UHGV virus genome: UHGV-0335080
DNA from: a virus
DNA: 34,923 bases
Strand: one strand, 5' to 3'
The position numbers and the translations under genes were made by a program. This document shows, piece after piece, positions 17,525 through 19,502 of this stretch (position 1 is the stretch's first letter; each line of letters starts with the position of its first letter). The notes beneath the pieces were generated by a model that worked only from the letters and a program-made list of their open reading frames with translations, did no database searches and was not told the DNA's origin.

Positions 17525-19387
17525 ATGACATTTAAACACTACGATGTGGTCAGGGCGGTGTCGCCGTCAGACCTTGCTGATGCACTTGCTCAAAAAATTC
17601 GTGAAGGATGGCAACCATACGGCGGGCCGTTTTCTTCGTATACGGATGATGGCGCAGCACTTATTCAGGCGATTGTCGCAGAAGGTGATGTGGTCGTCAG
17701 TGGTGCAACTGAGCCGGATTGGTACTACGTCATCGTACTGGCCGGGCAGTCCAATGCCATGGCTTACGGTGAAGGGCTTCCGCTGCCGGATTCATACGAT
17801 GCTCCGGATCCGCGCATTAAACAGCTGGCGCGCCGCAGTACAGTGACGCCGGGTGGGGCTGCCTGCAGATATAACGATATTATTCCGGCCGACCACTGCC
17901 TGCATGATGTGCAGGATATGAGTACGCTGAATCATCCGAAGGCAGACCTGAGCAAAGGGCAGTACGGCTGTGTCGGCCAGGGCTTACATATTGCCAAAAA
18001 ACTGCTTCCGTATATCCCGAATAACGCGGGGATCCTGCTGGTACCATGCTGTCGTGGTGGTTCGGCATTCACCCAGGGCGCGGAGGGGACATTCAGTGCG
18101 GACACGGGGGCCAGCCAGGATTCGGCACGCTGGGGTGTGGGTAAACCGTTATATCAGGACCTGATTGCGCGCACTAAAGCTGCATTACAGAAGAACCCGA
18201 AAAATGTGTTGCTGGCGGTGTGCTGGATGCAGGGAGAGTTTGACATGAGCGCCGCCACCTACGCACAGCAACCTGCGCTGTTTACAGCCATGCTGAAGCA
18301 GTTTCGTGCTGACCTCACTGTGTTTAACGCGCAGTGTCATGGTGGCAGTGCTGCAGATGTGCCGTGGATTTGTGGTGACACGACGTATTACTGGAAAAAT
18401 ACATACGCTACCCAGTACGACACCGTGTACGGAGGGTATAAAAACAGGGAGAGTGAGGGCGTTTATTTTGTGCCCTTCATGACAGACGGTAACGGCGTCA
18501 ATACCGCCACTAACGCACCGGCAGAAGATCCGGATATTCCGGCATCAGGATATTACGGTGCGGCATCGAGAACGAATGGAAACCAGGTATCATCAAACCG
18601 CCCGACACATTTCAGTTCATGGGCGCGCAGGAGCATTATTCCGGATCGTATGGCAACCGCTATTCTGAACGCAGCCGGGCGCACCTCAGCCTTCATCAGT
18701 GGTAAGGCACCGGAAATCAAACCCTCGCCCGGCGTCGACACGCCATCGGGGCCGTCTGAAGATGCATCCGTACGCACAATCTCCCTGTTGCCGACAGCCG
18801 GAGAGGCTGCTGCGCAGGGCTGGACCATTAAGGACGGCGGAATTCAGTTGTCAGATGGTGTATTTAAGATCACCAAGCAGAGCAATAAAGCCTGGTCCCT
18901 GACGCGCCCGGTGGATGACGCAGTCTCCCTGCTGACACGGGGTGGCAGACTGAGCTGTAAGTTTCGACTGTCAGGCGCACTGACCAACAACCAGTTCGGT
19001 CTGGGAATTTATCTGTATACCGATGTAGCGTTACCTGACGTCGTGGCGATGACCGGGACTGGTAACCCGTTCCTGATGTCGTTCTTCACCCAGACCACAG
19101 ACGGCAAACTGAATCTGATGCATCACAGGAAAGCAGGAAACACAAAGTTGGGCGAGTTCGGGAATTACAGTAACGACTGGCAGACGCTGGAGCTGGTGTT
19201 CACCGCCGGCAGTGCCACGGTTACTCCGAAACTGAATGGAGTGGCTGGCCCGGCATTCCAGGTCATAAAAGACAGTCTGACAGTGGGACTAAATGCACTG
19301 ACGCTGACGGATATTACCAAAAATGCAACGTATGGCGTTGAGATAGAAAGTCTGGTGCTGGAGATAAATGCACCGGCATCATCATAA
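17525..19387 (+). CDS. nanS-p: Prophage NanS-p-type sialate O-acetylesterase (DUF1737 N-terminus plus SGNH/SASA esterase domain)
   Basis: 620 aa; N-terminal MTFKHYDVV...; [14 protein letters not shown] esterase motif; GGGAGG RBS; position between Q and lysis genes as for NanS-p homologs in E. coli lambdoid prophages. Confidence 0.75.
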
Positions 19388-19471
19388 AAAGTGAGCCAGT
19401 CAAATGGAAGGTATCGTTAAACTCACCGGTAGTGTCAGTGGGTCGTCTGAGACGCCTGCATGAGTTATCAG

Positions 19472-19502
19472 AGCCATCAGTACTTAACTGGTGGCTTTTT
19501 TA
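19472..19502 (+). terminator. Intrinsic terminator between nanS-p-like gene and holin
   Basis: Stem AGCCATCAG/CTGGTGGCT (one G-U pair), loop TACTTAA, followed by T6. Confidence 0.45.

Follow-up and report, generated by a model that had tools for sequence, protein, structure and literature searches.

A NanS-p esterase gene between Q and the lysis cassette

The virus genome UHGV-0335080, a stretch of 34,923 nucleotides (nt) that we refer to in its entirety as the window, carries an open reading frame (ORF) of 620 amino acids (aa) between the late antiterminator gene Q and the lysis genes. Here we describe this ORF, nanS-p, together with its N-terminal DUF1737 domain, whose type was found to co-vary with the type of phage head. 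Judged from its gene content, the window is a Shiga toxin (stx)-negative lambdoid siphovirus prophage of Escherichia coli, and a near-isogenic sibling of the Stx2a phage Stx2_95. The coordinates of all features are collected in Table 1.

The three parts of the protein that a first-pass annotation of this DNA had named, i.e., a DUF1737-like N-terminus, an SGNH/SASA esterase motif, and a C-terminal extension, were all recovered by Pfam models above their cut-offs: DUF1737 (PF08410) at aa 3-53 (42.2 bits, cut-off 24), SASA (PF03629) at aa 69-265 (47.7 bits, cut-off 24.8), and, for the extension, DUF6645 (PF20350) at aa 470-580 (69.3 bits, cut-off 27). The structure of the chromosomal esterase NanS/YjhS (3pt5) aligned to aa 62-382 of the ORF with E = 1.6e-122 (phmmer), and that of a NanS-p C-domain (6yp6) to aa 425-616 with E = 3e-30, while the NCBIfam models gave no match to the 620-aa protein. 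The position of the gene between Q and the lysis genes, likewise stated by that annotation, was borne out, with holin S as the first lysis gene to follow.

Catalysis by NanS relies on Ser19 and His301 with Gln18 in the oxyanion hole, without a catalytic Asp (PMC9063846). In the 3pt5 alignment, these three residues are matched by Ser76, His362, and Gln75 of the ORF, and both the catalytic Ser and the catalytic His, the residues to which the first-pass annotation had tied its assignment, are accordingly present. Sequence block I reads GQSN and holds the catalytic Ser, and block IV reads RPTH, the same as in Stx2 prophage 86 (PMC10462455). When we read the C-terminal domain against vb_24B_21 (PMC10462455), three of the four proposed aromatic binding-site positions were still aromatic (F491, Y496, and F521), and the equivalent of F611 fell into a gap. 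At the N-terminus, no hydrophobic h-region was seen by eye in the sequence alone; DUF1737 appears to stand where NanS has its signal peptide.

By domain content and alignment, the ORF is a NanS-p-family prophage sialate O-acetylesterase. This identification was already known: NCBI has the exact protein from 78 contigs (e.g., EER8058812.1), and clustering at 90% identity places it in a group of 13,211 members, many of them partial entries that derive from short contigs. In this respect, the protein is an ordinary member of a characterized family, which adds another stx-negative carrier of nanS-p. The NanS-p enzymes of EDL933 and O104:H4 are active esterases that support growth on 5-N-acetyl-9-O-acetylneuraminic acid (Neu5,9Ac2) and de-O-acetylate mucin (PMC8065619). 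By analogy with these other alleles, for which activity was shown, the enzyme of the window would be functional on 9-O-acetylated sialic acid.

Table 1. Features of the nanS-p locus and its surroundings, with positions in the window.
Feature	Position	Strand	Evidence or remark
Late antiterminator Q	16341..16736	+	phrog_79 "anti-termination protein Q-like", E = 5e-49; 99.2% identical to Stx2_95 Q
Empty cargo slot	16829..17068	.	relatives hold stx1AB, methylase + tRNAs + stx2AB, or other cargo here
Intrinsic terminator, upstream	17010..17039	+	tR'-like position directly before Stx1 insertion point; 7+2 bp stem (17010-17032), T7
STnc100 (PasD-related) prophage small RNA gene	17098..17303	+	Rfam RF02076, 165.1 bits (gathering 47), model 1-206 full length
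Terminator of STnc100 gene	17273..17292	+	-17.3 kcal/mol
nanS-p (620 aa)	17525..19387	+	ATG start; full-length phrog_143 match; GGAGG Shine-Dalgarno 5 nt upstream
DUF1737 N-domain, loop class W	17531..17683	+	Pfam PF08410; aligned with phi24B gp84
Recombination joint, aa 56/57 (AEGDV/VVSG)	17690..17695	+	apparent fusion of W-type N-domain to body typical of A-type N-domains
NanS-like SGNH type II esterase core	17708..18670	+	Gln75-Ser76 at 17747-17752; His362 at 18608-18610
C-terminal lectin-like jelly-roll domain (DUF6645), putative carbohydrate-binding module	18797..19372	+	Pfam; 6yp6 match
Intrinsic terminator, downstream	19470..19498	+	within conserved holin S leader; 12-bp stem, T run
Holin S, 71 aa, class II / P21-type, first lysis-cassette gene	19537..19752	+	phrog_9876, phrog_20; RefSeq orthologue "class II holin family protein"
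Endolysin R	21016..21549	+	phrog_7 "endolysin", E = 1.5e-63
Fused ClpP-like protease / major capsid protein, head class H3	27364..29388	+	phrog_133, phrog_4523; 99.7% identical to Stx2_95 protein

The DUF1737 loop class follows the head class

A structural precedent for the N-domain comes from phage phi24B, where cryo-electron microscopy (cryo-EM) revealed the NanS-p homologue gp84 as an abundant virion protein, whose DUF1737 forms a Tyr42-anchored hexamer in the central hexon of each face of the T=9 capsid; the remainder of gp84 is apparently cleaved, and mature capsids showed no more of the protein than a DUF1737 stub (bioRxiv 10.64898/2026.04.10.717836). A function in mucus was suggested in the same work. 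The DUF1737 of the window is identical to residues 2-57 of gp84 at 33 of 56 positions, with the fold-forming segments invariant. The most divergent segment is the loop at aa 34-47, in which the window protein has a Tyr at position 39.

We compared this loop with the head genes across ~290 related IMG/VR loci plus phi24B and Stx2_95, and expressed association as bias-corrected Cramér's V on 75-78 dereplicated loci, which were sampled by N-domain type or protein similarity and are neither random nor phylogenetically independent. Only three loop classes occurred among the sampled loci: W, the class of the window; P, that of phi24B (GSALISTAGYGAEFIQ); and A (G(S/G)PVAITPYTLMQ), with subtypes A1 and A2. 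The heads fell into four classes, namely H1 (lambda gpE-type), H2 (HK97-like fusion), H3 (the protease-capsid fusion of the window), and P (phi24B-type), whose capsid proteins have no detectable mutual similarity; BLASTP found none between the H3 protein and the lambda-type, HK97-type, or phi24B (phrog_334) capsid proteins.

Across 75 dereplicated loci, the W-type domain stood with H3 heads 17 times and with H1 heads twice (never with H2 or P), and the P-type domain stood with P heads 6 times and with an H2 head once (never with H1 or H3). The A1 domain was seen with 21 H1, 14 H2, 2 H3, and 0 P heads, and the A2 domain with 9 H1, 3 H2, 0 H3, and 0 P heads. The association of the N-domain loop class with head class amounted to V = 0.72, versus at most 0.52 for all other features and flanks: 0.31-0.38 for the catalytic domain, 0.34-0.42 for the C-terminal domain, 0-0.07 for the holin, 0-0.29 for the endolysin, and 0.19-0.52 for Rz, as well as 0.22-0.46 for the 300 nt directly upstream of the gene, 0.48-0.50 for the stretch 300-700 nt upstream, and 0.26-0.32 for the 150 nt downstream. 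With the head genes at least 6 kb away, the N-domain thus forms an island of association with head class, as would be expected of a docking module under co-selection.

The association was stronger still within a single catalytic class, i.e., the one at least 90% identical to phi24B, where V rose to 0.91 (A with H1 or H2, 10 loci; P with P, 6; W with H3, 15; W with H1, 2). Fisher's test of W against H3 gave p = 9e-13 over loci and p = 4e-7 over unique haplotypes, values that overstate the significance because the loci are non-independent. The W/H3 loci comprised at least two unrelated Q types, three catalytic and four C-domain classes, and 10 categorical haplotypes. Among deposited phage genomes, an H3 capsid was present in 11 of 14 W-type records and, conversely, a W-type domain in 11 of 12 H3 records, the twelfth (CP-1639) being without nanS-p. 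The window itself fits the rule, with a W-type domain and an H3 head.

Several simpler forms of this relation were considered and set aside. A one-to-one match between N-domain subtype and capsid was rejected, as identical A1 and identical A2 sequences occurred with both H1 and H2. Coarse binning as the origin of the weak association of the other features was rejected upon de novo clustering at 80, 90, and 95% identity. A conserved backbone with a swapped middle was unsupported as the cause, as the region 300-700 nt upstream follows the head less than the N-domain does.

An apparent recombinant allele

The esterase of Stx2_95 is identical to that of the window at 55 of 56 positions up to aa 56, after which it turns phi24B-type (57% identity overall). 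The esterase of the Stx1 phage YYZ-2008, by contrast, is 92% identical overall with a different, A-type, N-domain loop, and from STnc100 to the nanS-p stop, the DNA of YYZ-2008 is 89% identical to the window. W-loop loci with a window-type body were a mere handful (L035, L136, and L156). We infer that the allele of the window is a recombinant, in which a head-matched W-type N-domain was joined to the linker, catalytic domain, and C-domain typical of other phages, with Stx2_95 and YYZ-2008 as its apparent "parents."

An empty cargo slot upstream of nanS-p

The toxin genes of related phages map to a different site than nanS-p. Homology to Stx2_95 stops at position 16828 and restarts at 17069, and the 3.2 kb of cargo that lie between in Stx2_95 hold a hypothetical gene, a DNA methylase gene, three tRNA genes, and stx2AB. 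Homology to YYZ-2008 spans 16773-17038, which is 92.5% identical to the post-Q region of that phage, and restarts at 17056, so that stx1AB maps between 17038 and 17056. In further E. coli relatives, DNA methyltransferase or TerB/DUF6731 genes are found between Q and the esterase gene. The esterase gene lies downstream of the toxin genes in both YYZ-2008 and Stx2_95, in agreement with the literature (PMC10462455), and no tRNA genes of the kind present between Q and nanS-p in Stx2 phages were found in the window.

In terms of presence and absence, it is the slot at 16829-17068 that varies (filled by stx1, by stx2 together with a methylase gene and tRNA genes, or by TerB, or else empty), and nanS-p itself is kept in most relatives, if reported as missing from Stx2e/f/g phages (PMC10462455). 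The first-pass annotation had put nanS-p in the position occupied by stx, which turned out to be off by one slot, the toxin cargo mapping upstream of STnc100. On these alignments, nanS-p is a conserved gene downstream of a variable slot and not an occupant of it. The prophage of the window may be either a possible recipient of an stx cassette or the product of cassette loss. A toxin-free, near-isogenic sibling of Stx2_95 with slot edges known to within a few bases should aid in reconstructing how stx cassettes are gained and lost. A different kind of loss was seen in the cryptic Stx1 prophage CP-1639 (L298, AJ304858; 10374-11156), which kept the H3 head module and lost nanS-p, holin, and endolysin in one deletion between stx1B and Rz.

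Terminators and transcription of nanS-p

The gene had also been described as a classic moron, bracketed by intrinsic terminators. Both terminators are real: The upstream one folds with -16.8 kcal/mol (z -4.6) and the downstream one with -17.0 kcal/mol (z -5.3), and in each case 0 of 200 shuffles were as stable. The upstream terminator is not adjacent, however, but lies 486 nt from the ORF, with a complete STnc100 gene with its own terminator in between. The bracketing is moreover less specific than it sounds, because terminator-like sites are enriched over 14-23 kb (21 observed versus 8.7 expected) and at least four plus-strand terminator-like hairpins occur in the gap between Q and nanS-p. 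The downstream terminator belongs to a segment (19468-19540) that is kept upstream of the holin in ~300 deposited phages, regardless of nanS-p type.

Of the further marks of a moron, the terminator directly downstream stood, and a promoter of its own and a distinct base composition did not. No sigma-70-like promoter of its own with at least 9 of 12 consensus matches was found on the plus strand in 16737-17524, in a consensus-only scan that a weak or atypical promoter could escape. Nor was a compositional island found, as the guanine plus cytosine fraction was 0.50-0.57 in the ORF, 0.52-0.57 upstream, and 0.43-0.55 downstream. Published expression depends on induction: nanS-p rose by 1-2.4 log with mitomycin C in parallel to stx2a, as measured by quantitative polymerase chain reaction (PMC10462455), and a microarray study placed it with the genes that responded most strongly to norfloxacin by upregulation (PMC8065619). 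The classic-moron layout is thus weakly supported, and the best reading is that nanS-p is a Q-dependent late gene whose product, without a signal peptide, would exit the cell at lysis.

The intergenic regions on either side hold some further features. The order pasD/STnc100, sialic acid esterase, pasA/C, holin is common in such prophages (bioRxiv 10.64898/2026.05.13.724894). For the interval from nanS-p to the holin, Rfam reported no PasA/PasC-type small RNA (sRNA) and only a sub-threshold Qrr match (16.5 bits, gathering 50), a search in which the PasA and PasC sequences themselves were not compared. The first 80 nt past the nanS-p stop (19388-19467), the site at which relatives are reported to carry PasA/PasC sRNAs, are rare: Of 315 matching phage records, just 10 span 80% or more of the 153-nt query, among them PPyecE_EH1910 (99.4%). 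The terminator and holin leader next to this stretch occur almost universally. On the minus strand upstream of the gene, a terminator at 17310-17331 (8-bp stem with 7 G-C pairs, T6) stands back-to-back with the STnc100 terminator and is faced by a promoter-like site at 17503-17531 that overlaps the nanS-p start codon. This pair suggests an antisense transcript of ~190 nt across the nanS-p leader. Beyond its terminator, the candidate (17500-17310, minus strand) folded like shuffled sequence (z -0.13), and it matched no Rfam family.

Proposed mechanism and alternative explanations

Taken as a whole, we consider it likely that the locus encodes a NanS-p esterase as a fixed gene of the late operon, which is made upon induction, released by lysis, and present here as a recombinant with a head-matched N-domain. 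From the position of the gene and the published expression data, nanS-p would be transcribed from pR' by Q-modified RNA polymerase, which would read past the terminators at 17010-17039, 17273-17292, and 19470-19498. The enzyme would be made on induction of the prophage because its transcription is taken to be of this late, pR'/Q-driven kind, and it would leave the cell through S/R/Rz lysis directly after. Outside the cell, it would remove 9-O-acetyl groups from Neu5,9Ac2 on mucin glycans, and the freed sialic acid could then be used, via sialidases and the Nan pathway, by surviving sibling cells.

A further step concerns the N-domain, which would dock on the head-matched capsid such that part of the enzyme is displayed on virions. 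That DUF1737 is such a capsid-docking module, matched to head type, has in our judgment a chance just short of even, given the co-variation described above and the phi24B analogy. We are similarly balanced, with a slight tilt to the negative, on whether it also tethers the esterase of the window, at least transiently, to the H3-type capsid, the protein that would be the docking partner of W-type DUF1737. Genetically, the domain behaves as if it were part of the head module and not of the enzyme to which it is fused. More tentative is the general form of the idea, in which DUF1737 would be a modular, head-matched docking domain across lambdoid phages, including siphoviruses whose capsid proteins are unrelated to that of phi24B, with the catalytic and lectin payload freely swapped by recombination at the domain boundary and the adaptor staying with the head genes. 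If true, NanS-p would no longer be a "metabolic moron" but an enzyme tethered to the capsid, with a payload open to exchange, and would act as a glycan esterase that virions display or deliver; the window would be a natural example of a payload swap; and a single cryo-EM observation from 2026 would be generalized and would suggest a design principle for enzyme display on phage capsids. We regard the coupling of N-domain and head as the one lead at this locus that is worth experimental follow-up.

A number of observations weigh against this interpretation. The very same A-type N-domain sequences are shared by phages of the lambda gpE-type and the HK97-type, whose capsid families are unrelated. 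Five loci are exceptions to the rule, in that L161 and L168 pair W with H1, L023 and L270 pair A with H3, and L183 pairs P with H2, and two W-type Stx1 phages lack an H3 capsid (AP005153/NC_004913 and KJ909655, the latter named as a recombinant). These exceptional loci and phages are at the same time natural cases for asking whether a mismatched DUF1737 still binds a capsid. In the window protein, the Tyr42 "tooth" that anchors gp84 in the hexon pore of phi24B is replaced by Asp42, and the linker has none of the "SSP" motifs to which a role in processing was ascribed. The capsid protein of the window differs, is of a non-T=9 type, and comes with its own encoded decoration protein, phrog_122. 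As for the account as a whole, the orthologue in the nearest complete genome is annotated as frameshifted, which shows that some lysogens, at least, can do without the gene.

An opposite view would take nanS-p as an autonomous moron, i.e., cargo insulated by its own terminators that serves the fitness of the lysogen on O-acetylated sialic acids only and does nothing for the phage, which we consider unlikely. It can draw on deletion and complementation in EDL933 and O104:H4, where NanS-p allows growth on Neu5,9Ac2 (PMC8065619), on the dispensability of the gene (absent from Stx2e/f/g phages and CP-1639, frameshifted in 20AR0479), and on the real terminators on both sides. The upstream terminator, however, belongs to the cargo slot or the pR' leader, with an sRNA gene in between, and the downstream one to the conserved holin leader; an own promoter and a compositional signature were not found, and expression follows induction and stx. 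Moreover, the phi24B homologue is abundant in the virion, and the N-domain tracks head class better than the neighboring DNA does, which is unexpected for pure cargo. The claim of the first-pass annotation that the gene confers host fitness rather than a phage function is therefore questionable: The growth of other alleles on Neu5,9Ac2 agrees with its first half, while capsid decoration in phi24B and the tracking of the head speak against its second. Capsid decoration and the tracking of the head, along with the place in the late operon beside lysis and head genes, could instead point to a virion enzyme that chiefly benefits the phage, through retention in or penetration of mucus by way of the displayed esterase and its lectin domain, or through de-O-acetylation of a bacterial surface glycan for adsorption, with any gain for the lysogen a by-product. 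We find this doubtful. A mucus role was proposed for gp84 on the phi24B capsid (bioRxiv 10.64898/2026.04.10.717836), and O-antigen de-acetylation was raised as a possible role in a review (PMC8065619), but the DUF1737 stub on mature phi24B capsids, from which the catalytic part is apparently cleaved, speaks against an enzyme that stays on the virion for long, no report describes an adsorption phenotype, and A-type domains are common to unrelated capsid families.

The capsid-docking interpretation itself would fall if the coupling of N-domain and head were an artefact of lineage or sampling, with DUF1737 serving, for example, oligomerization or solubility of the esterase, a possibility that we take seriously even if we incline against it. 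The way in which the loci were retrieved and their non-independence leave room for it, as does the fact that most W/H3 phages on deposit are Stx2 phages related to one another and sequenced in a single series; A-type domains, moreover, lack capsid specificity, and the anchor Tyr42 is not conserved. Yet the W/H3 loci span unrelated Q types and many haplotypes, and the DNA flanking the N-domain on either side is less tied to head class, where simple linkage or common descent would predict the reverse. Very improbable, finally, is that a cryptic prophage is at hand in which nanS-p decays as an inactive relic. The frameshift in the nearest complete-genome orthologue and the many partial members of the database cluster would fit such decay, but the partial entries stem from short contigs, the 620-aa frame is intact with all catalytic residues and three domains, and the surrounding phage genes are intact as well. 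We thus retain, as the likely account, a late-operon NanS-p esterase that is induced, released by lysis, and fitted with a head-matched N-domain.

Genomic setting of the prophage

The gene order of the window runs from a DnaB-like helicase and DUF968 through Q, the empty slot, STnc100, nanS-p, holin S, a 268-aa ORF, endolysin, and Rz to the morphogenesis module. This module is of siphovirus type, with terminase, portal, the protease-capsid fusion (phrog_133), the decoration protein, and a V-like tail tube. The Q, lysis, terminase, portal, capsid, and tail genes are all intact, and the order Q, slot, STnc100, nanS-p, S, R, Rz, terminase, and head genes was also found in the Stx1 and Stx2 phages compared. 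Over 16300-19800, the window is 99.3% identical to E. coli strain 20AR0479, whose esterase orthologue (L297 2727-4590, NZ_CP195410) is annotated as a frameshifted pseudogene, with the copy in the window being intact.

Between the holin and endolysin genes, we observed the 268-aa ORF at 19757-20563 on the plus strand (phrog_1085, function unassigned; RefSeq lists its orthologue as "YdfR family protein", partial) and, convergent to it, an ORF of 104 aa at 20573-20887 on the minus strand (phrog_1853). By its arrangement, this ORF pair (19757-20887) is a second cargo-like insertion, located within the lysis cassette. In the early region, the plus strand holds two tandem copies, ~656 nt apart, of a unit in which an isrK sRNA precedes a C4 antisense RNA (9574-9762 and 10230-10418), with matches of 61.6-82.4 bits that are each above the gathering score. 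The pair is a duplicated immunity or anti-Q-like RNA module of the P1/P7 or Gifsy type.

Comparison with known systems

The near-isogenic phage Stx2_95 (LC567838) shares with the window Q (99%), the head genes (99.4-100%), the replication region (96.5% nucleotide identity), and the N-domain of the esterase (55/56). It differs in the methylase, tRNAs, and stx2AB that fill its slot and in its phi24B-type esterase body. YYZ-2008 (NC_011356) differs from the window in its stx1AB genes, its Q, and its A-type N-domain loop.

Like the NanS-p proteins of enterohaemorrhagic E. coli (EHEC), i.e., that of phage 933W (933Wp42/z1466/L0105) and the seven EDL933 and five O104:H4 alleles, the protein of the window has three domains and the SGNH blocks, and its gene follows the stx slot and precedes holin S; a similar dependence on induction is expected. 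Unlike these, it resides in an stx-negative prophage and joins a W-type N-domain to a YYZ-2008-type body. Its block IV reads RPTH, not RSSH or RASH, and it is shorter (620 aa versus 636-657 aa for the Stx-phage alleles) because its linker is short. The W-type N-domain is probably the "D3" variant of PMC10462455.

With gp84 of phi24B (vb_24B_21), the protein shares 54% identity over its full length, ~70% in the catalytic core, and the fold family of the C-domain. It has a shorter linker (by 11-14 residues) without the SISSP motif, and its C-domain is only ~40% identical, with the equivalent of F611 missing. The two host phages differ as well, phi24B being a T=9 podovirus and the window a siphovirus with an unrelated capsid protein.

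Chromosomal NanS belongs to the nan regulon, consists of one domain, and bears an N-terminal export signal. The phage protein resembles it (YjhS, 3pt5) over a core of 321 residues that includes the Ser-His dyad and the oxyanion-hole Gln, and departs from it in that DUF1737 takes the place of the export signal, a lectin-like C-domain is added, and the gene lies in a phage late operon.

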